Origin: Candidatus Heimdallarchaeota archaeon
GTDB lineage: Archaea; Asgardarchaeota; Heimdallarchaeia; Heimdallarchaeales; Heimdallarchaeaceae
NCBI GenBank assembly: GCA_016840095.1
Contig: JAEOSZ010000040.1
Coordinates: 1-64,000 of the forward strand
Length of the DNA stretch: 64,000 nucleotides
Reading direction: 5' to 3'
Below, in pieces: positions 7,063 to 16,715 of the stretch. The notes beneath the pieces were generated by a model, which was not told the DNA's origin, ran no database searches, and saw only the letters and a list, made by a program, of their open reading frames with translations. The position numbers were made by a program, and so were the translations under genes. The number at the start of each line of letters is the position of its first letter. Position 1 is the first letter of the stretch.

Positions 7063-9276
7063 GTGAAAAATATGATTTTAAAGAAAAAAAAACTGCTACT
7101 ATCTCTTTTTCTCACTGTAACTACTTTACTTACATTCAATCTCTATAACGGAACTACTGTAGTAAAAGCTGCCTTGATACCTCATGGACCTATTGTAATT
7201 CAACAAGATGCTGACTTTGCTCTTTATGGGTTTCCAGGAACAGGAGATCCTTCTACTCCATACATAATTGAAAACTATGAGATTATTACTTCAAACTATG
7301 CAGGGATATTCATTACGCATACAACAAAGAGTTTCATTATTCGTAATTGCTATGTTGATGCCTTTAACAATGGTATTTACATTTATGAAACATATGGAGG
7401 AATTATTGAGGTTGTAAATAACACTTGTGAGTATAACAACCACGTTGGTGTCAGAATCGAATTTGTAGATTCGCCAATCATATCAGAAAACAAATGCTAC
7501 TTCAATCTAGAAAATGGTCTTCGATTTTGGGAAGTCTTATCACCAACAATTATTGATAATAGATGTCAATTCAACCAATACAGTGGTTTACTACTTCTTC
7601 ATTCTGAAAATTCCATTGTAAGGAATAATATTCTCAGTGATAATGGTGGTGATGCAATGGAAGTTAAATTTGCACCAAACTCTGTTTTTACTGATAATAT
7701 ATGTAACAATAACCAATGGCATGGAATCGATATTGCAGATTCTGAAATGTGTACTATAGTTGGAAACGAAGCAAATGGAAATTCAGCTGTAGGAATAATA
7801 CTTATCACATCACCATATGCTACATTAACAGATAATACCTGTAATATCAACCTTGGTGATGGAATAATATTACATGAATCTTCTAATTCTGTTCTTACTG
7901 ATAACACAGCTAATTTCAATCAATATTCAGGGATAGGTACTTCTCGATCATCAAGTATGATTATTCAAGGAAGTTTCTGCTCAAATAATGGATATCTAGG
8001 AATAAGTGTTTTCGATGGATCAAATTTTGAAATTCTAAATAATTATTGCACAGATAATGGCATTTGGGGAATAGAAACTGTCAAGATGGATTATCTAACT
8101 GTACTGAATAATTTCTGCTCGAATAATGGAGTCTGGGGATTTACAACTGATCTATCTAGCAATATTCTAGTAGCTGAAAACGAGTGTACATACAATGGTT
8201 ACAAAGGCATGTTCATAACAAGAGTCAATGAAGGAGATATAACTGATAATTATTGTAGTTATCAATATCGTGAAGATGGAATTTCTGTAGAACAATCATC
8301 TGATTTATACATTGCAGATAATCTCTGTGAATACAACATTGATTTAGGCATCACTATAGGAAGTTCTGATACAATAGTTGTTGAAAGCAATTCATTAGTT
8401 AACAATTACAACTGGGGACTATTTGTTCCTCACTCAACAAATATTGATATCTTCAATAATAATTGTAGCAACAATGCTAACAGAGGTATCTATACAGTTG
8501 AATCAAGATATTTAACAATAATAAACAATATTTGTAACGATAATACTGGAAATGGTGGTATTTTCATTGATGTCACAACCTATTCAACAATTGAAAACAA
8601 TATTGCCAACAATAATAGGTATGGTTTAGCAGCTGTTTACTCAAACTTTACAACTGTATCCAATAATGAATTCAGTTACAATATAATCAATGGAATTGCT
8701 ACTTTAGAATACAGAAATTCAACAATTTCGAATAATATCTGTAACTACAATGGAAATTCAGGTATAATGTTTTATTGGGATACCTATTTCGTTGATGTAA
8801 TTGAAAATGAGTGCAGTTACAACGCACTTTATGGAATTTATTTGAGATCATCCGATTACAACAATATTCTCTCTAATACCCTAGTAGAAAATGTTGGATA
8901 TGGTGTTGTGTTAAACGAATCCAGCGATAACAATTTCATACATCTGAACTACTTTATTGATAATAACTTAGGCTACACCTACTTACAATATTATGAGAGT
9001 CAGGGATATGATGGTTCAGGAACAAACCTTTGGTTTGATGAAGACACTAAAAAAGGAAACTATTACTCAGACTGGAAGAAAAGAGTATCATTCCCAATCC
9101 CTCCAGCTAATACACCACCCCCTCCACCTCCTCCCCCTCCGGCACCACCAACACAAATTCCACCTCCTGATATCCCTCCACCTCCACCTCCACCACCACC
9201 TGCAGCTGTAGGTTATCCAATAGATGGACCTTGGAATGTAGTAGACGAATATCCGTTGAAAATCAAAATTAAATAA
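7063..9276 (+). CDS. Secreted parallel beta-helix (NosD/pectin-lyase-like) protein with polyproline insert
   Basis: Signal peptide; GFPGTGDPSTPYIIENY N-cap; many N-x-C-x-x-N..GI repeats; GNYYSDW...DEYPL C-cap with Pro-rich insert. Confidence 0.88.
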   Translation: MKNMILKKKKLLLSLFLTVTTLLTFNLYNGTTVVKAALIPHGPIVIQQDADFALYGFPGTGDPSTPYIIENYEIITSNYAGIFITHTTKSFIIRNCYVDAFNNGIYIYETYGGIIEVVNNTCEYNNHVGVRIEFVDSPIISENKCYFNLENGLRFWEVLSPTIIDNRCQFNQYSGLLLLHSENSIVRNNILSDNGGDAMEVKFAPNSVFTDNICNNNQWHGIDIADSEMCTIVGNEANGNSAVGIILITSPYATLTDNTCNINLGDGIILHESSNSVLTDNTANFNQYSGIGTSRSSSMIIQGSFCSNNGYLGISVFDGSNFEILNNYCTDNGIWGIETVKMDYLTVLNNFCSNNGVWGFTTDLSSNILVAENECTYNGYKGMFITRVNEGDITDNYCSYQYREDGISVEQSSDLYIADNLCEYNIDLGITIGSSDTIVVESNSLVNNYNWGLFVPHSTNIDIFNNNCSNNANRGIYTVESRYLTIINNICNDNTGNGGIFIDVTTYSTIENNIANNNRYGLAAVYSNFTTVSNNEFSYNIINGIATLEYRNSTISNNICNYNGNSGIMFYWDTYFVDVIENECSYNALYGIYLRSSDYNNILSNTLVENVGYGVVLNESSDNNFIHLNYFIDNNLGYTYLQYYESQGYDGSGTNLWFDEDTKKGNYYSDWKKRVSFPIPPANTPPPPPPPPPAPPTQIPPPDIPPPPPPPPPAAVGYPIDGPWNVVDEYPLKIKIK
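9097..9202 (+). repeat. Polyproline-coding low-complexity tract (CCA/CCT/CCC)
   Basis: IPPANTPPPPPPPPPAPPTQIPPPDIPPPPPPPPP. Confidence 0.9.
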
Positions 9277-9311
9277 TTAATTGTGAAGCAATTTCACAAT
9301 TTTTCTTTTTT

Positions 9312-10451
9312 CTAATCATGTACAATTTCCTCTGGAGGAACGAAAGGAAATACTTGTCTTACAATATCGCTTGCTTTTTCAAACTGTGCGACATTTCCAT
9401 TGAATTCTCTGATTGCTTCTTGGAATTGCTCACAGAAACTTTCTGTGAAATGTTGAGCAGCCATTTGAAGGATCCATGCATCACTATCACTGATAATTAA
9501 AGTTGCCACATTTCTATCAGCATTCTCAACTACAATCATCTTTTTGTCTCTAAAACTTACCTTTCTCAGATCCGTTTGAGCTCCTGTAGTTTCAGAAATA
9601 AGTGATTTCAGAGCTGTAACTGTTCCAGTTACTAAGATATCTTGATGTGCTATAGTATCTTGTTCTCTTCCTATACTGACTGAATAAAGTAATAATCCAG
9701 AGTCATTAAAAATGAGGATTTTATTGATCTTTGCAGGTAAGAGATAGACATAGAATGGATTAAGTATAAAAGCCAGAGCTAGAATTCCAAAAGTTACGCT
9801 GAAAGGAATTGCTCCATAAACCCAGAACCCAAGATCTACTGTCCATCTTTCAAATATTTTTAGAAAAGCAGCACCAAACCCAATTCCTGTAGCTATAGAA
9901 ATTATTAAGCTCACACGTTTTAGCTTTTTGTATTCTGCTTTTATAGTGTCTTTAACATAGACATAGAAAGCTTCTCCTAGAACAAAAGCCTGAAAGATGT
10001 TTAGAATAACTCTTGAAACTCTGTATTCAGGATCAACTACACCTAGTTCAAGTTTAAATACAAGTTCTAGAATTAATACAATCAAATAACTTCCAAGAAG
10101 AGTTGATGATATAGCTAATAGGATTGTATTTGGTTTCTCATGACGCATGAATTCTAAATAAAGAAAGAGGACGAAAAGTGCAATTGCTGAGGGAATCATA
10201 TGAATCTCAAAAACTGAACTTGCATTAACTTCATTTCCTGTAGTATATTCCAGAATACCAAAAACATACCAAAGAATGAATATAATAATTTCGAATATTC
10301 CTTGTAAAATTACTAAGCCAAAAAGCCAAATAAACCATGTAAAACCAGTAATTTTATCTTTATATCTTCTATAGAGGAAATAACCCAAAATTAAACCTAA
10401 AATAACCATCTGGACTACTTTAATCCACAGTTCTGTCATACTTGATGCCAT
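9312..10451 (-). CDS. Seven-TM membrane protein with C-terminal longin/roadblock-like cytoplasmic domain (putative receptor)
   Basis: About 7 hydrophobic helices in the first ~240 aa; C-terminal KILIFNDSGLLLYS...LVTGTVTALKSLISE...F...F..QF pattern also seen in the 32915-34951 C-terminus and typical of Asgard longin-like domains. Confidence 0.75.
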   Translation of the reverse strand: MASSMTELWIKVVQMVILGLILGYFLYRRYKDKITGFTWFIWLFGLVILQGIFEIIIFILWYVFGILEYTTGNEVNASSVFEIHMIPSAIALFVLFLYLEFMRHEKPNTILLAISSTLLGSYLIVLILELVFKLELGVVDPEYRVSRVILNIFQAFVLGEAFYVYVKDTIKAEYKKLKRVSLIISIATGIGFGAAFLKIFERWTVDLGFWVYGAIPFSVTFGILALAFILNPFYVYLLPAKINKILIFNDSGLLLYSVSIGREQDTIAHQDILVTGTVTALKSLISETTGAQTDLRKVSFRDKKMIVVENADRNVATLIISDSDAWILQMAAQHFTESFCEQFQEAIREFNGNVAQFEKASDIVRQVFPFVPPEEIVHD

Positions 10452-10624
10452 TGGGTTTATATATCCAACTTCTCATATAAAAATAGTTGTAGTATTTAGG
10501 GAAAAGATACTAAACAAATATAGGGAAAGAAATGTTGGAAATTGAGTAAGTACTCCCATTAGTGAGTGTAATGGATACTCTAAAAAAACTCAAAAAAACC
10601 AAGTTTATGTCAAATGACTAAGGT

Positions 10625-10727
10625 TATGAGTTGGAAGGGTTGGGGTTCCCTTCCTAAAGCTCTGCTGGTGGTTAAAAAACTAGCGAGGATGCTAGTGATG
10701 ATATGTGGAGCATATCACTGATTCATA
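10625..10727 (+). other. Candidate structured intergenic element 1 (multibranch hairpins)
   Basis: Closing TATGAGT/ATTCATA; hairpins GGAAGGG/CCCTTCC, ACTAGC/GCTAGT, TGATATG/CATATCA. Confidence 0.45.
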
Positions 10728-10891
10728 TGAGAGAAAATACTATTTAAACACCAAGAAATTATGTGTATGATTAAAACTGACGATTTATCAGTTAAATCCT
10801 TCCTAAATTGCAGTTTGTGTAGATGTTGACACAATAACCCCTATATGTTTGTGATGGAAATTTTATATAGGTCGGTTCATAAGATATCCCG

Positions 10892-11260
10892 ATGGATTCT
10901 GAAGTAGAGAAACTGGACTATGAATTGTTACTATTGATGAGTACTTTAGGAGCAAACAAGATACGAGCAGTACTGATATTAGCTCATCTCTACCCAAAAG
11001 CCATAACCGCAACACAATTGTCCACACTACTTGGATATTCAATGAAGGCTAGAACAATCTATCGGGGAATATTAGATGATCTACAAGAAAGAGAACTCAT
11101 CTTTCTTGATAAATTAACTCCAAAAGTAGCAAGTATTAGGCTGAATCATGAAAATGTTTTGTTAAAACGTTTGATTGAGCTATCTAAATCTTATGGGACT
11201 GATTACCTGAAAGTGATAGATGAATTAATAGGGAAGCAAGATAGAAATGAAGACTATTGA
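10892..11260 (+). CDS. Winged helix-turn-helix protein (putative transcription regulator)
   Basis: IRAVLILAHLYPKAITATQLSTLLGYS...ILDDLQERELI wHTH pattern. Confidence 0.75.
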   Translation: MDSEVEKLDYELLLLMSTLGANKIRAVLILAHLYPKAITATQLSTLLGYSMKARTIYRGILDDLQERELIFLDKLTPKVASIRLNHENVLLKRLIELSKSYGTDYLKVIDELIGKQDRNEDY

Positions 11261-11867
11261 AATAAATGCAGCATTGAGAACAAACGAAAAACTGTCTAGA
11301 AATTGGGTGAAATTTTCTGCATATGTTTTGTTAGTTTTATCATCAGTTCTATTAATTATTTTCTTAGTATCAATGTTTGCAATTACTCCTGATCTATCCT
11401 ATATCGAATTATCAGGAGACTATATCTTCTTTGAATCAATTACTGAACTATATAGTCAGCATTTTCCAGATTTCTTTCAACCACCTATTATAGAGGGTTT
11501 AGCAAGCTTTTTATCAGAATGGATATATTTTCCCTTAATCTTTGCTGTAGTTGGATTCTTATCTTTTATAGCAGTAACTTATGTGGATGGGTCAATGATT
11601 CTGGAGAACAAATCATGGTTGGTAGATTTACAAGAACAGGGATTGATAGATAATTTTAGTACATACAAGAATCTTGTAATATTAACAGAAGTCGGTAAAA
11701 TTACTATCTCAAAAAATAATATGAAATATAAAGTTAAGCTGCCTAAGCTTGACAATTATGACTTGTCAAGATTTGGACTTGTTTCAGAAGACAATTTGAT
11801 AACTTGTTTGTGTTCAAAGAAAGAACTCACAGGCATTCTACATATTTTTCTTTCAAAGGTTAACTGA
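11247..11867 (+). CDS. Hypothetical 2-TM membrane protein, overlapping the upstream wHTH gene (probable translational coupling)
   Basis: Two long hydrophobic segments flanking a loop; 14-nt overlap with upstream ORF. Confidence 0.75.
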   Translation: MKTIEINAALRTNEKLSRNWVKFSAYVLLVLSSVLLIIFLVSMFAITPDLSYIELSGDYIFFESITELYSQHFPDFFQPPIIEGLASFLSEWIYFPLIFAVVGFLSFIAVTYVDGSMILENKSWLVDLQEQGLIDNFSTYKNLVILTEVGKITISKNNMKYKVKLPKLDNYDLSRFGLVSEDNLITCLCSKKELTGILHIFLSKVN

Positions 11868-11879
11868 ATCACTTATCTA

Positions 11880-11998
11880 AACACACTTTCTGTGTTAACC
11901 TACTTTCATTAGTGACATAAACTACCTGAATTAGCAGGTAGACTTACGTCTTTCCTATGAGGAGATTTCTCTCCGAATCGATCACTTGTGTTGTTACT
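11880..11998 (+). other. Candidate structured element 2 / bidirectional terminator region between convergent genes
   Basis: Hairpins AACACA/TGTGTT, CTACCTG/CAGGTAG, GAC-TTAC-GTC, GGAGA/TCTCC; possible closing AGTGACA/TGTTACT. Confidence 0.45.
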
Positions 11999-13386
11999 TA
12001 ATCTCCACTTGCGGGTATTTCAGCTGGTGGACTAGCTGCTGATGCGGATTTAGTTCCATTACCGTTTACGATGTGTTTTCGAAGGTATTTTGCATCTCTT
12101 AAATCTTCATCATCTTTAACCCTACCAAATTGACCATTGTTAAGTTTGTCATTGATTCTTTCAATAACACTTTCATACATCCACTGATCATCTGTTCTCC
12201 AACCGTTACTAGCGAAGTCATAGCTATCAAATTCGAAAGTCCAATAAACACCATGTTTGCCAAAGAAATCTAATGAATAGATGTCATAGTCCTTAAAAGT
12301 ACTCCAAATGAGATAATTCAACTTGGAATCATAGTAAGGTGGCAGTGAGATTCTAAAGAATATTCCCTTATTAAAGAGTTCAAAAGCTGTTTGGAAGGGT
12401 ATTTTTTCCTCATTTAGGAAGTGGAAGAATTGAGCTTTCTCTTGCTCAGGAATATTCTCAATAACGAATGCTCTTGTAACATATGGTTCAGATGTCTTTC
12501 TGCTTAAGTTCCATCGAGGATTGGTTATCAAATGATTAACTACAAGACTGTAGTATTTTCTACCAAATTCTACTTTGGCTGCGTCAGAGACCTTGAATTT
12601 ACCGTTTTCGTTTCGTGGCATATTCTTGGTATCGAAAAATGCACTTAAATTATAGAGACAGGCTTCTTCCCAATCTTCCAATTTAATTTTCTTTACCAAA
12701 CTATCGTAGTAGTGTTTGTAGTGTTCAATAAGCTTAGTCTGCTTAGTTCGGATATCGATAGTTATACCATTTCGAATGGATGTAGTTAGATCTCGTAGCA
12801 TAAGGAGATGTAATGGTTCAATAAGTTCAGAATCTATTGGAGAGGGAAGGCGTGGTAGTTTGGTGCTCTTACTGAGTCTCTTCTCCCAGAAGGAGATTAC
12901 ATCAAAGGATCCAGGGGTGGAAGAATAGGCTTTTAGTGGTTCTGGTTGAGAATCACGATAACCCATAGATTTCATGATAGAATAGCTATCACAATATTCC
13001 TGATCCAAGAGATATTCTAGATATTTTTTGAAAATTGCATCAGTATTCACTGGAAGATCAAAGTGGGCATATATGCCGAATTTTTCCCCATAGAAGCGAT
13101 TATACGCTCGGATATACTTGTGTTCAGATAAAGCGTTTTGTAACAATGTAAACTGGTGGAGAGATGAAATTGAAAACATCACACCATATCTGAAGAGGGA
13201 AATTCTTTCAGGAATGAAGGAAGCAATAGGAAATCGTAGAATACCTCTCTCTTTGAGAGAATCAACTCGACGAATCATAGTTTGAGGAGAAATGTTTAGC
13301 ATTTCAGCCTGTTTAGAATATGGTTCAAGTGTATAGTTCTGCAACACATTAATGATTTTTTGATCAAGTATGTTCAGTTGTTCCAT
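11998..13386 (-). CDS. Large tandem Lrp/AsnC-type transcription regulator (wHTH + RAM-like domain, duplicated)
   Basis: N-terminal LDQKIINVLQ..PYSKQAEMLNISPQTMIRRVDSLKERGIL HTH; ferredoxin-like ligand domain; degenerate second module starting IEPLHLLMLRDL. Confidence 0.78.
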   Translation of the reverse strand: MEQLNILDQKIINVLQNYTLEPYSKQAEMLNISPQTMIRRVDSLKERGILRFPIASFIPERISLFRYGVMFSISSLHQFTLLQNALSEHKYIRAYNRFYGEKFGIYAHFDLPVNTDAIFKKYLEYLLDQEYCDSYSIMKSMGYRDSQPEPLKAYSSTPGSFDVISFWEKRLSKSTKLPRLPSPIDSELIEPLHLLMLRDLTTSIRNGITIDIRTKQTKLIEHYKHYYDSLVKKIKLEDWEEACLYNLSAFFDTKNMPRNENGKFKVSDAAKVEFGRKYYSLVVNHLITNPRWNLSRKTSEPYVTRAFVIENIPEQEKAQFFHFLNEEKIPFQTAFELFNKGIFFRISLPPYYDSKLNYLIWSTFKDYDIYSLDFFGKHGVYWTFEFDSYDFASNGWRTDDQWMYESVIERINDKLNNGQFGRVKDDEDLRDAKYLRKHIVNGNGTKSASAASPPAEIPASGD

Positions 13387-13595
13387 TTATGTTCCTCTTG
13401 TTTTTGTTGTTCAAGAAACAACAGGGTAAGAGATTGAAGCCCGTACAAAGTATAGCTTGTAGTATAGTTTTTACATGCGATATCTTGTACGAAGTTCATC
13501 TCTTTTTCCCCATTTGAGAGAACCCATGTATAGACCTCTAAATTTTGTTTCTTATGGTTTGACCCCTTGCTATTTGAGTTCAGTTTAACTGGTGT

Positions 13596-13705
13596 GCCAG
13601 ATCCTTTCCAGAGGAAGAACCTGTGGGCGTCGTGACCTCGTGACGCCCCCAAGTTTCCCATTTTCTCGCCGAGAATTTGAGGAAAGGGGGTGGGGTTTTC
13701 TGGCG
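13596..13705. ncRNA. Candidate GC-rich structured RNA / cis-regulatory element 3
   Basis: GCCAGA/TCTGGC closing stem; GGGCGTC/GACGCCC hairpin; overlapping alternative long stem CGCCCCC-TTTCC-TTCTC/GAGAA-GGAAA-GGGGGTG; T-tract follows on + strand. Confidence 0.4.
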
Positions 13706-13752
13706 ATTATTATTTTTTGATTTTTATCAGCGTGATTGTGTCTTTTTTCCCC

Positions 13753-14037
13753 TTAATTGACACCGTTACCGATTGGTTCATCGGTTACTGGGCCTGCTCC
13801 GCCGGCCTGATCCATGCCATTACCGATTGGTTCATCAGTTACTGGACCTGCTCCGCCGGCTTGATCCATGCCATTACCGATTGGTTCGTCTGTCACTGGA
13901 CCTGCTCCGCCGGCCTGATCCATGCCATTACCGATTGGTTCGTCTGTCACTGGACCTGAAAAGACCAGGATTGTGCTTGCTGTTAAAGCAAACAATGATG
14001 CAACAAGTAATACCCCAATTATTTTCTTTGTTTTCAT
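13753..14037 (-). CDS. Secreted multi-copy peptide precursor: signal peptide + 4x GPVTDEPIGNG with MDQAGGA spacers
   Basis: MKTKK + hydrophobic core; identical peptide repeats whose DNA differs only at third codon positions; upstream GGTGG SD-like and TTTAAATA box. Confidence 0.9.
   Translation of the reverse strand: MKTKKIIGVLLVASLFALTASTILVFSGPVTDEPIGNGMDQAGGAGPVTDEPIGNGMDQAGGAGPVTDEPIGNGMDQAGGAGPVTDEPIGNGVN
13763..13956. repeat. 54-bp tandem repeat, about 3.6 copies (coding, 18 aa unit)
   Basis: Units start at 13763, 13817, 13871, 13925; GC-rich relative to background. Confidence 0.97.
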
Positions 14038-14091
14038 TTAACTCTTCCACCAGCTAAATTTTGAACTCAAGATTACAGTTTTCTAAACTCT

Positions 14092-14099
14092 TATTTAAA
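14092..14099 (-). promoter_or_regulatory. Putative TATA box of the peptide-precursor gene
   Basis: TTTAAATA on minus strand about 55 nt upstream of ATG; GGTGG just upstream of start. Confidence 0.5.
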
Positions 14100-14529
14100 T
14101 CTTGTTACGATTTTCCATTTACCTATTTTACTTTAAAATTTTAATGTTTAAGCCTGAATTAGCGTTTTTATGCTCTGAGAAATGCAGTTTTAGGCGAAAT
14201 TAAGCAATATGCAAAAATTGTCGGTGGAAAAAAGTAACATTGAACTTTTCATGTTGCATTACAATAAAGTTAGAAAAGTTTTGTTAGTATTTTTGTCGGG
14301 ACTTTACTTTACTTAGTTATTCTTCTAAGTGTAAGGCAGAGAATACATTTGGAATACTTTCGATTTAAAAAAGGAGAAAATACCTGGGTATATGTGCAAT
14401 ACTCTGCACACATATCTGTTTTGAGTCGAAAATACTTTCAATCATCTCTCCAACCGAATCATTTCTCATGAAGAAAATTCAATGTTTTCATTATGAAAGA
14501 TATAAATAATTGAAAACTAGATATTCTCC

Positions 14530-15072
14530 TTGATTATGCACGTAGCAAGATGTAAAAGATGTGGTAGCAGGGAGATTGATTCAAAGTATCTAAATACACA
14601 ACTATATATTGGTACAGCTTCACCATTAGGGAAGATTAGATATTATTATTGCTCTGAATACTGTTATACAATTGAAAATGCAGAAAAGAATCTAACTTAC
14701 AGTATTTTCTTGTTTTTTATTGGTTTAATTATTATAGCTTTTTGGATTTTTTATCTGAATTTGGCTATTAAAGGTTTCAAACATAGAAAAGCATTAGGAA
14801 ATTGGAAAGAAAAGAAATCTGAATATTGCTACTTTTGTCAAGCTGAAATAACTGAAATTCCAGAAGGTAAAGGAGTATGTATGAGCTGTGGAGAGATTAT
14901 ACACTATTGTGATATCTGTCAAGATCATATCTTCCTTGGTGATACCATTCTTCAACTTGAACCCTGTGGTCATATCTTCCATAAGAATGAATTACTAGAT
15001 TGGATTGATAGTAACAATGTTTGTCCTAAATGTGCTATAGAAGTAGAATTTGTAGATGTTAACCCTGATTAA
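14530..15072 (+). CDS. Membrane protein with zinc ribbons and C-terminal RING-H2-like finger (putative E3 ligase)
   Basis: CKRC..CSEYC, one TM, CYFC..CMSC, CDIC-x14-CGHIFHKNE..W..CPKC. Confidence 0.85.
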   Translation: MIMHVARCKRCGSREIDSKYLNTQLYIGTASPLGKIRYYYCSEYCYTIENAEKNLTYSIFLFFIGLIIIAFWIFYLNLAIKGFKHRKALGNWKEKKSEYCYFCQAEITEIPEGKGVCMSCGEIIHYCDICQDHIFLGDTILQLEPCGHIFHKNELLDWIDSNNVCPKCAIEVEFVDVNPD

Positions 15073-15084
15073 TTCTTCTTAAGA

Positions 15085-15912
15085 TTAAGGTATGTTTGAA
15101 GGATTCCAAGTACATCTATAATTCTCATTCAAGTTATCCAATCTTTGCATATCTTCTGATTTAATTTTAAAATCAAATACATTAGCATTCTCAATTATTC
15201 TTTCTCTGTTAGATGATTTTGGAATAACAACTACTTCTTGTTCAAGATTCCATCTAATTAACATCTGAGCAGGAGATCGATTGTATTCTTTAGCAATTAC
15301 TGCAAGTTTCTCATCGTTTATTCTGTTACCTTTTGTTAGAGGACTATATGATTCAAGAACAATATCCTTACTTCTACAGTAATCTCTCAATTCCTTTTGA
15401 TACAAGAATGGATGATATTCTACTTGATTAACAGTTGGAGGAATATTACATACTTTCAGTAATTCTTCTAGATGTCTAATTGTGTAATTACTTACTCCTA
15501 TAGCTCTAACTAAACCTTCATCATAGATTTTCTCTAATGCTTTCCAAGTCTCATTTCTAAGTTTTTCCACAGGCCAATGAATCAGATAAAGGTCAATATA
15601 TTCCAAATTTAATTTCTTGAAGCTTAAATCGAAAGCTTTGAGAGCACTATCATATCCATGATCTGAATTCCACAATTTGGTTGTTACAAAAAGATCTCTT
15701 CTATCAAAACCACTATCTCTGATGGCTCTTCCAACGCTCTCTTCATTGAAGTAGAAAGCTGCTGTATCAAAATGCCTGTAACCAGCTTCTAAAGCATAAT
15801 TAATAGCATCTACCGCCTGTTTTCCTTCTTCTGCTAGATATGTACCTAATCCGAAAATTGGAATGTCAATTCCATTATTGAGTTTAATAGTTGAATTAAT
15901 ATCTATTTTCAT
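15085..15912 (-). CDS. Aldo/keto reductase (2,5-DKG reductase/glyoxal reductase-like)
   Basis: GLGTY, GYRHFDTAAFY, TTKLW, LYLIHWP, IGVSN, IPKS. Confidence 0.95.
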   Translation of the reverse strand: MKIDINSTIKLNNGIDIPIFGLGTYLAEEGKQAVDAINYALEAGYRHFDTAAFYFNEESVGRAIRDSGFDRRDLFVTTKLWNSDHGYDSALKAFDLSFKKLNLEYIDLYLIHWPVEKLRNETWKALEKIYDEGLVRAIGVSNYTIRHLEELLKVCNIPPTVNQVEYHPFLYQKELRDYCRSKDIVLESYSPLTKGNRINDEKLAVIAKEYNRSPAQMLIRWNLEQEVVVIPKSSNRERIIENANVFDFKIKSEDMQRLDNLNENYRCTWNPSNIP

Positions 15913-16031: not shown

Positions 16032-16715
16032 TTGTTGATTATGAATAAGAACAAGTTAATACTATTTTCAGTGACAGGTGTTATTATTCTTTCAGTTTCT
16101 ATTTCATTATTGGTTGTCTTTATACCAAGAGCTCCTCCAGGAGGAGCAGAATATGAAATATCATTTGCAGCTTTCTGGAGCGAATCTACTCACCCATATG
16201 ATTTTCCTCCAGCTCCTCATTGGTCAGGACTAATTGGTGCTACTCATGCAGCTAATATTACTTTTTGGGAGATAGGTGGATTGGCTTCTTTAGGAATTAA
16301 GAACGTAGCTGAAACAGGAAGTAAAACAGCTCTAATTGATGAGGTAAACATTGCTATTACAAACAATACTGCTTTCTCTTTGATCTCAGGTCCTGGAATT
16401 AATCCTTCTCCAGGAATTGCAAAAACTGAGTTTACAATTAGCAGAGATTTTCCATTAGTTACTATAGTATCTATGATTGCTCCTAGTCCAGATTGGTTTA
16501 TAGGCATCAACTCAGTCAACTTACTTGATGATGGTGAATGGGTGGATGAACTTGTTCTACTAGTATATCTTTATGATGCTGGAACTGACAGTGGTTTAAC
16601 TTATACTGCTTCTAATAATGCCACTATTCCACAAGTACCAATTGTTCTAATTACTGATTCTGATTTACCTGGTAGTAATTTAGCTTTCGGAACATTCACA
16701 TTCACAAAAATTTAA
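16032..16715 (+). CDS. Spondin_N (F-spondin/mindin N-terminal) domain protein, membrane-anchored
   Basis: W..STHP.DFP..PHWSGLIGATH, MIAPSPDWFIG, YDAGTDSG motifs; N-terminal TM. Confidence 0.88.
   Translation: MLIMNKNKLILFSVTGVIILSVSISLLVVFIPRAPPGGAEYEISFAAFWSESTHPYDFPPAPHWSGLIGATHAANITFWEIGGLASLGIKNVAETGSKTALIDEVNIAITNNTAFSLISGPGINPSPGIAKTEFTISRDFPLVTIVSMIAPSPDWFIGINSVNLLDDGEWVDELVLLVYLYDAGTDSGLTYTASNNATIPQVPIVLITDSDLPGSNLAFGTFTFTKI

Follow-up and report, generated by a model that had tools for sequence, protein, structure and literature searches.

A conserved pair of exported-peptide and tandem Lrp/AsnC-like genes, and two separable neighbouring units, at a Heimdallarchaeaceae locus

The locus and its genes

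We analysed a window of 64,000 nucleotides, the first part of contig JAEOSZ010000040.1 from a Candidatus Heimdallarchaeota archaeon (assembly GCA_016840095.1, a Heimdallarchaeaceae genome bin of 3.44 Mb that is 89% complete). Our subject is a stretch of about 4.8 kb in which an earlier note, made from the letters alone, had described five genes: a repeat-peptide precursor, a tandem Lrp/AsnC-like regulator, a small putative winged helix-turn-helix (wHTH) protein, a protein with two transmembrane helices (2-TM) and a seven-transmembrane (7TM) protein with a longin-like domain. Open reading frame (ORF) calling in the window recovered all five annotated ORFs in place (Table 1), and their orthologues stand in identical order in every congeneric genome examined. 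The proposal that the five make up a single signalling cassette did not survive, as outside the genus the block splits into three units. Synteny, which the note had suggested as a check, is complete in the congeneric genomes examined, and beyond the genus only the pair of peptide and Lrp-like genes is widely kept. Within the genus the flanking genes for Ldh_2, an Arf-like GTPase, AFOR and beta-lactamase-like proteins are as collinear as the five themselves, so that synteny there says little. The locus thus carries a caution, that gene order inside a Heimdallarchaeaceae genus is too conserved for a functional argument.

Table 1. Positions of genes and sequence elements in the window (aa, amino acids; nt, nucleotides; TRF, Tandem Repeats Finder)
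Feature	Position	Strand	Description
7TM membrane protein with C-terminal cytoplasmic longin domain	9312..10451	-	379 aa; neighbour of the pair, not a core part
Palindrome TTGTGTA-N6-ACACAA	10815..10834	+	Upstream of the TATA-like box of the wHTH gene
Small putative wHTH protein	10892..11260	+	122 aa; first gene of a two-gene operon
Fast-evolving 2-TM protein	11247..11867	+	206 aa; 14-nt overlap with the wHTH gene
Single-chain tandem Lrp/AsnC-like protein	11998..13386	-	462 aa; two HTH+RAM-like halves and a disordered tail from residue 423
Conserved structured non-coding element	13529..13718	+	Between the peptide and Lrp-like genes; about 190 nt; ends in a T-run
Exported repeat peptide	13753..14037	-	94 aa; Sec-type signal peptide, then 3.6 copies of GPVTDEPIGNGMDQAGGA
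Tandem DNA repeat encoding the peptide units	13766..13958	-	54 bp x 3.6; TRF score 330; 94% matches
Inverted repeat, proximal arm TGGAAAATCGTAACA	14103..14117	-	Abuts the TATA-like box TTTAAATA of the peptide gene at 14092-14099
Inverted repeat, distal arm TGGAAAAAAGTAACA on the + strand	14225..14239	+	About 107 nt from the proximal arm

The description of the 462-aa product as a tandem Lrp/AsnC protein was borne out by its predicted fold. The AlphaFold2 (AF2) model, for which an alignment of 23 family members (A3) was used as input, has two halves, each with a helix-turn-helix (HTH) and a RAM-like domain (predicted local distance difference test score, pLDDT, 82). Its helices at residues 6-46 superpose on Lrp/AsnC structures as an N-terminal AsnC-type winged HTH, and two units, at 50-147 and 287-372, follow the beta-alpha-beta-beta-alpha-beta order of a RAM domain, a likeness by fold alone. 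A Foldseek search of the model ranked the fused siroheme decarboxylase NirDL (4ch7) first, over the full length and with E 2.5e-9, and about 30 Lrp/AsnC regulators after it; the probability was 1.0 to many Lrp/AsnC chains. At the sequence level the Pfam matches are all to HTH models: NirdL-like_HTH scores 29.8 bits (cut-off 27), and HTH_AsnC (24.0 bits, cut-off 27) and HTH_24 (21.4 bits, cut-off 21.9) lie slightly under their cut-offs. The Pfam model of the RAM domain, AsnC_trans_reg, gave no match in this protein. The N-terminal HTH is the most conserved segment, with S33, T36 and L44 invariant in the 23-member alignment. Siroheme decarboxylase was tried as an identity for the protein and rejected: the NCBIfam models give 15.7 bits for AhbA (cut-off 140) and 13.7 bits for AhbB (cut-off 125), and there are no Ahb genes nearby. 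As these scores are so far under the cut-offs, we read the protein as tandem Lrp/AsnC-type.

A profile search found the family in 120 of 301 Asgard genomes, mostly in several copies. Like the Lrp/AsnC regulators (E. coli Lrp/AsnC, Pyrococcus FL11, Sulfolobus LysM), its members place an N-terminal AsnC-type HTH before an alpha/beta RAM-like domain, and the gene adjoins a likely target that has a palindromic site at its promoter. Unlike them, they fuse two HTH+RAM halves in one chain of 370-460 aa, leave AsnC_trans_reg unmatched, are tied to an exported partner and are, as far as searched, limited to Asgard archaea.

A ribosome-binding motif, GGTGG, lies 10 nt before the ATG of the peptide gene, and all differences among units 1-3 of this gene, as read from the sequence, are synonymous. 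Orthologues with 2-7 repeats occupy the same position in all genus genomes examined; the units are alike within one genome and unlike between genomes, which is to say homogenised. The earlier note had seen no modifying enzyme or dedicated protease beside the precursor, and indeed neither is encoded within 7063-15912 or in the orthologous loci, so that the gene lacks the adjoining enzyme that marks a ribosomally synthesized and post-translationally modified peptide. The precursor resembles the multi-copy precursors of the yeast alpha-factor type in that identical units, set apart by spacers, stand in tandem behind a signal peptide. It differs from them in that dibasic processing sites are absent, the units originate from the tail at the C-terminus of a folded exported protein, and a link of the peptide to the 7TM protein is unsupported.

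An exported FDPPGG-tail protein is paired with the Lrp-like gene

Twenty-eight loci with a tandem Lrp-like gene were sampled from seven Asgard families (f1, f3, f5, f6, f7, f11 and f28), and in 27 of them a co-oriented gene for an exported protein lies directly upstream. These partners are 155-227 aa long and end in FDPPGG (or FDPPT/K) followed by 8-14 residues, and the gap between the two genes ranges from -3 to about 100 nt. A 7TM gene stands beside the pair at only two of the 28 loci, both from genus g11. Altogether, exported-protein/Lrp-like pairs occur in more than 100 genomes. Each of the other three Lrp-like copies in the genome of the window has an exported protein upstream, and the same holds for eight paralogous loci in the genus. 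The pair of peptide and tandem Lrp-like genes is thus a real and ancient unit, spread across Asgard archaea. Of the proposed cassette this core has come out strengthened, and the other three genes are separable from it.

The two members of the pair also diverge together. Distances among the Lrp-like proteins and distances among their partners correlate with a Mantel r of 0.88, a figure that relatedness inflates and that none of 2000 permutations reached; this indicates that the two genes have been duplicated and have diverged together. One paralogous form is a three-gene operon, found at L035:2600-4733 and seven like loci (G001, G004, G007, G008, G009, G011, G013, G017), which encodes, in order, an exported protein with a FDPPEGDPDYPPGGG tail, a tandem Lrp-like protein of 407-415 aa and a CheY-type receiver of 130 aa. 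The partners in this operon are 152-183 aa long with a signal peptide, and the receiver matches Pfam Response_reg at 1.4e-19.

An alignment of the partners (A6) displays the motifs I.DAYY.D.DGDG.EDDV, LPSG, FYNHATESGWY and FDPPGG, and we define the FDPPGG-tail family by a signal peptide, DAYY..D.DGDG..DD, ESGWY and a C-terminal FDPPGG-x8-14. The family corresponds to no Pfam family, and no relative of solved structure was found by sequence search. A word-index search returned 222 matches in Thor-, Loki- and Heimdallarchaeota, all called 'hypothetical' or 'conserved exported protein', and an exhaustive search returned 354 clusters at 50% identity, nearly all of them stand-alone proteins of about 160 aa. 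One protein of 4885 aa (P0216) contains 18 stretches that match the core (positions 66-125) of the partner profile, which suggests, judging by profile matches, that the partner fold may also serve as the repeat unit of giant surface proteins. In the genome of the window, another Lrp-like copy has a partner of 291 aa (L043:5824-6699, G000 contig C14), which lacks FDPPGG and ends in a Pro/Thr-rich region, a C-terminal transmembrane (TM) helix and an RRRRK motif, and so we take it to be an anchored variant. Neither protein family of the pair is named in Pfam, NCBIfam or the literature searched, and no description of the pair was found in the parts of the literature that our searches covered. It is apparently an undescribed Asgard module.

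How does a 94-aa repeat peptide belong to a family of folded exported proteins? Its repeat unit corresponds to the sequence at the C-terminal end of full-length partners, such as ...FDPPGGSGDEPIGGGVSP in g11, where the orthologous position holds a partner of 172 aa with this end; the tail DPPGGSGDEPIGG of g11 can be set against the repeat DPTGGFPDEPIGG of genome G005. At the orthologous position in g12 there is a form of 102 aa. One clade of the window's genus has forms of 86-103 aa, in which a remnant strand, EYTFD, is followed by two or three DP.GG.PDEPIGG-like units, and in the clade of the window nothing is left except the signal peptide and 2-7 units. Of the features that define the family, the window peptide has the signal peptide and the tail motif only, and the 86-103-aa forms with EYTFD and the 172-aa form of g11 stand as intermediates. 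By this sequence comparison the peptide is best read as a reduced member of the FDPPGG-tail family, which has lost the beta domain and multiplied the tail motif DP.GG..DEPIGG. The change from a folded exported protein to a multi-copy tail peptide within one genus shows which segment of the partner selection has retained.

A candidate operator and possible roles of the pair

Arms of 15 nt, TGTTACnnTTTTCCA and TGGAAAAnnGTAACA, form an inverted repeat at eight of eight peptide promoters of the genus, against 0.2 expected in shuffles. The distance from arm to arm is about 107 nt in the genome of the window versus 14-17 nt in the others. Two perfect copies of the 15-mer exist in the 3.44-Mb assembly, both at the peptide promoter, copies with one mismatch occur at control level, and the operator was not found at the 7TM or wHTH promoters. 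Paralogous modules with a similar recognition helix (S.QT.IRR/KV) carry TTCCA-N17-TGGAA around the TATA box. The strict form TTCCA...TGGAA is present at none of nine Thor-type promoters and at five of 23 other Heimdall-class promoters, and its absence or rarity in distant subfamilies indicates that the operator is subfamily-specific. Scans for sigma-70-type promoters and intrinsic terminators stayed at chance level, such models being ill-suited to archaea.

We consider it fairly likely that the 4.8-kb stretch comprises three separable units that are incidental neighbours in this genus, namely peptide plus Lrp-like gene, wHTH plus 2-TM gene, and the 7TM-longin gene, and that in the first of them the tandem Lrp-like protein controls the adjoining peptide gene as a dedicated local regulator of an exported product. 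The protein would act as a pseudo-dimeric regulator of the feast/famine type, bound at the peptide promoter to the 15-nt inverted repeat on either side of the TATA box; it would tune transcription of the peptide gene, and probably of its own, in response to a small ligand at the RAM-like domains. RAM domains bind amino acids. Such a pair offers a concrete and testable regulatory unit, whose candidate operator and product are both defined, in Asgard archaea, the closest archaeal relatives of eukaryotes.

Several observations weigh against this picture. By structure the Lrp-like protein comes closest to an enzyme, NirDL, rather than to a regulator. The candidate operator could belong to another factor, and the conservation of the inverted repeat inside one genus is partly inherited. 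The 366-nt spacer between the peptide and Lrp-like genes, with its conserved RNA element, disfavours simple co-transcription of the two in the genus. Finally, the 7TM orthologue adjoins the pair in three of the four genera of the family (g1, g11 and g12), directly downstream and co-oriented in g11 and g12, and there may be a lineage-specific link between the 7TM gene and the pair.

A different role for the same two genes would be self-sensing as in the RRNPP systems of Firmicutes (Rap-Phr, PlcR-PapR, AimR-AimP): the precursor would be cut to tail peptides, which re-enter the cell and bind the RAM-like domains of the Lrp-like protein as a signal of cell density. The systems share a secreted pro-peptide gene that adjoins the gene of a cytoplasmic HTH regulator in conserved adjacency, and an exported product and a cytoplasmic HTH protein form an obligate pair across the phylum. 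In the genus, moreover, the tail alone is kept and multiplied, with synonymous differences between units, and one paralogous module has the CheY-type receiver directly downstream. We nevertheless regard self-sensing as unlikely. Most family members export a folded domain of about 130 aa and not a peptide, no dibasic or other evident cleavage sites occur in the peptide, and RAM domains are known to bind amino acids rather than peptides. Neither an importer nor a protease is adjacent at the window locus, and there is no linked importer of the Opp type; the candidate receptor has an Lrp/AsnC fold in place of the tetratricopeptide repeats (TPR) of the RRNPP receptors. We give an equally small chance to a related and broader proposal, an Asgard family of exported-tail signals in which the FDPPGG tail would be released outside and sensed by the adjacent tandem Lrp-like regulator, the tail having been multiplied here to a poly-peptide precursor. 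If true, this would be the first peptide-based system of cell-cell communication described in archaea. For peptide signalling in archaea there is at present no better lead than this pair.

The model of the earlier note made the peptide the ligand of the 7TM-longin protein, a receptor signalling via a small GTPase, with the Lrp-like and wHTH proteins as transcriptional output. The N-out, C-in arrangement of the 7TM protein, like that of G-protein-coupled receptors (GPCRs), and its longin domain are in keeping with such a role, as are the adjacency to the pair in three genera and an Arf-like GTPase gene a few genes away. Gene order makes it very improbable. Genus g10 keeps Ldh_2, 7TM (50-52% identity to the 7TM protein of the window), wHTH and 2-TM genes in this order, with neither an Lrp-like gene nor a precursor alongside; the nearest Lrp-like genes of this genus (38-40% identity) are on different contigs, where each has an exported partner and there is no 7TM or wHTH gene. 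Genes for the exported protein, the Lrp-like protein, the 7TM protein, a second 7TM paralogue and Ldh_2 follow one another in g11 and g12, where wHTH/2-TM genes are absent, and the most similar 7TM homologues of other families (25-30% identity) stand among unrelated neighbours. The note had itself named a 7TM gene in unrelated contexts and apart from the precursor as what would speak against its model, and the gene is indeed without a precursor beside it in g10 and among unrelated genes in other families. The gene lies beside Ldh_2 throughout the family, and the orders in sister genera and other families make Ldh_2 its constant partner. The Ldh_2, Arf and AFOR genes are as syntenic as the 7TM gene, and neither the 7TM nor the wHTH promoter carries the peptide operator.

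The structural match to NirDL raises another option, that the Lrp-like protein is an enzyme of the NirDL/AhbAB type or a chaperone, which acts on the exported partner or escorts it before secretion. NirDL and AhbA-AhbB have the same tandem Lrp/AsnC architecture, 4ch7 being the best full-length match, and in some pairs the two genes overlap or lie end to end (spacing -3, 1 and 8 nt), as expected of proteins made together. The AhbA and AhbB scores given above, the absence of haem-pathway genes nearby, and a copy number of 4-7 per genome, with an exported partner for every copy, set the family apart from these enzymes. No segment of the protein is better conserved than the HTH recognition helix, and there is a palindromic site at the promoter; we judge the enzyme or chaperone role highly doubtful. 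That the peptide and Lrp-like genes are neighbours by descent only, with no functional link, is hardly credible: all neighbouring genes are collinear within the genus, as this would require, but the adjacency recurs in 27 of 28 loci from seven families and in paralogues with different other neighbours, and the exported partners and Lrp-like proteins co-diverge.

Neighbouring units and non-coding elements

The 7TM protein was modelled with seven TM helices and a C-terminal beta-beta-alpha-beta-beta-beta-alpha domain (pLDDT 75). DSSP assigned the elements of a longin topology (E242-249, E254-260, H267-289, E295-299, E304-310, E315-321, H326-342), and VIA-align matched the domain to the longins VAMP7, synbindin, Sec22, sedlin and AP sigma with Z 11-12.1 and a root-mean-square deviation of 2.5-3.2 A. 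In Foldseek the longin domain reached a probability of 1.0 and a best E of 1.7e-3, and on this point the earlier note was right. The top matches of the helical bundle are GPCRs (TAS2R, Z 14.7; Ste2, Z 13.0), but helical models typically reach about Z 14 by arrangement alone, and Foldseek of the 7TM model returned no GPCR at E<=0.001. K/R-rich loops after TM1, TM3 and TM5 suggest that the N-terminus is outside and the C-terminus inside the cell.

Look-alike clusters of the 7TM protein in the ESM Atlas come from Promethearchaeota only. The protein belongs to a large family of Asgard paralogues, and its gene stands here, next to Ldh_2, through inherited gene order. The second 7TM-longin paralogue that follows the orthologue in g11 and g12 (L101:6786-9233 and L100:5334-7772) is about 24-26% identical. 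The gene of the Arf-family small GTPase (1135-1686, + strand; Pfam Arf, 4e-42) lies a few genes from the 7TM-longin gene in g1, g10 and g11; it is possible that it encodes the partner of the longin domain, or that mere inherited gene order keeps it there. Many Asgard longin and Roadblock architectures have been described (Liu et al., preprint 10.1101/2020.10.19.343400; Tran et al., PMC10933270), and the portions of these two papers that we consulted contain no 7TM-longin fusion. The C-terminal domain shares the longin topology of these proteins, within a large Asgard expansion of the superfamily, and is unlike them in being fused to seven TM helices.

The wHTH and 2-TM genes are a separate small operon of a putative regulator and a membrane protein with a palindrome of its own. 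The two ORFs and their overlap were as the earlier note had them, and the wHTH label is the weaker part of its description: the 122-aa protein has no Pfam match, its best sequence match in the PDB, PH1932, has an E of 0.074, and an hhalign comparison to the Lrp HTH, in the right register, also gave 0.074. The 2-TM protein evolves fast, its identity being 44-47% in genomes whose wHTH and 7TM proteins retain 89% and 82%, respectively. Outside the genus a gene for a protein with 2-3 TM helices follows the wHTH homologue in five of five loci, with no 7TM or Lrp-like gene nearby in other families. The palindrome at 10815-10834 is unique in the window (0.06 expected by chance), recurs at the same place in the loci of the genus, and is likely the operator of this unit. 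Two distinct sites, the inverted repeat of the peptide gene and the palindrome of the wHTH gene, fit two separate regulatory units.

Long, hairpin-rich intergenic gaps had also been remarked upon, and correctly so: at 492, 440 and 366 nt, three gaps here rank second to fourth in length among the 59 in the window (median 60 nt), and on at least one strand they fold with z of -3.8 to -4.6 relative to shuffles. Between the peptide and Lrp-like genes, the element at 13529-13718 is present in all 16 genus genomes checked, in a single copy by blastn. Its alignments (A1, A7, A11) contain invariant helices with G-U pairs that can form only on the + strand, from which it is probably transcribed, and one hairpin occurs with four different complementary sequences. 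RNAalifold on MAFFT alignments recovered invariant helices only, the variable hairpins being misaligned, and for this reason covariation was judged by eye and not counted. Scans of 9000-15200 for Rfam families and tRNAs gave no match, and a search for a 14-mer of the element in the sister genera g10-g12 gave chance matches only. In the spacer between the 7TM and wHTH genes, a GC-rich block of three hairpins at 10633-10717 (GGAAGGG..CCCTTCC, CTAGC..GCTAG, TGATATG..CATATCA) is kept only in the closest clade (G000, G008, G010, G001).

Three further genes around the stretch deserve mention. An exported NosD/beta-helix protein with a long poly-proline tail (7063-9276, + strand) is inserted between the Ldh_2 and 7TM genes in this genome only; in the other genomes, without this insertion, the two genes abut. 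Divergent from the peptide gene, a membrane-anchored RING-finger protein is encoded at 14530-15072 on the + strand (zf-RING_2, 4e-9). An exported protein at 16032-16715 (+ strand) has a strong match, 3e-49, to Spondin_N, a domain best known in extracellular matrix proteins of animals.

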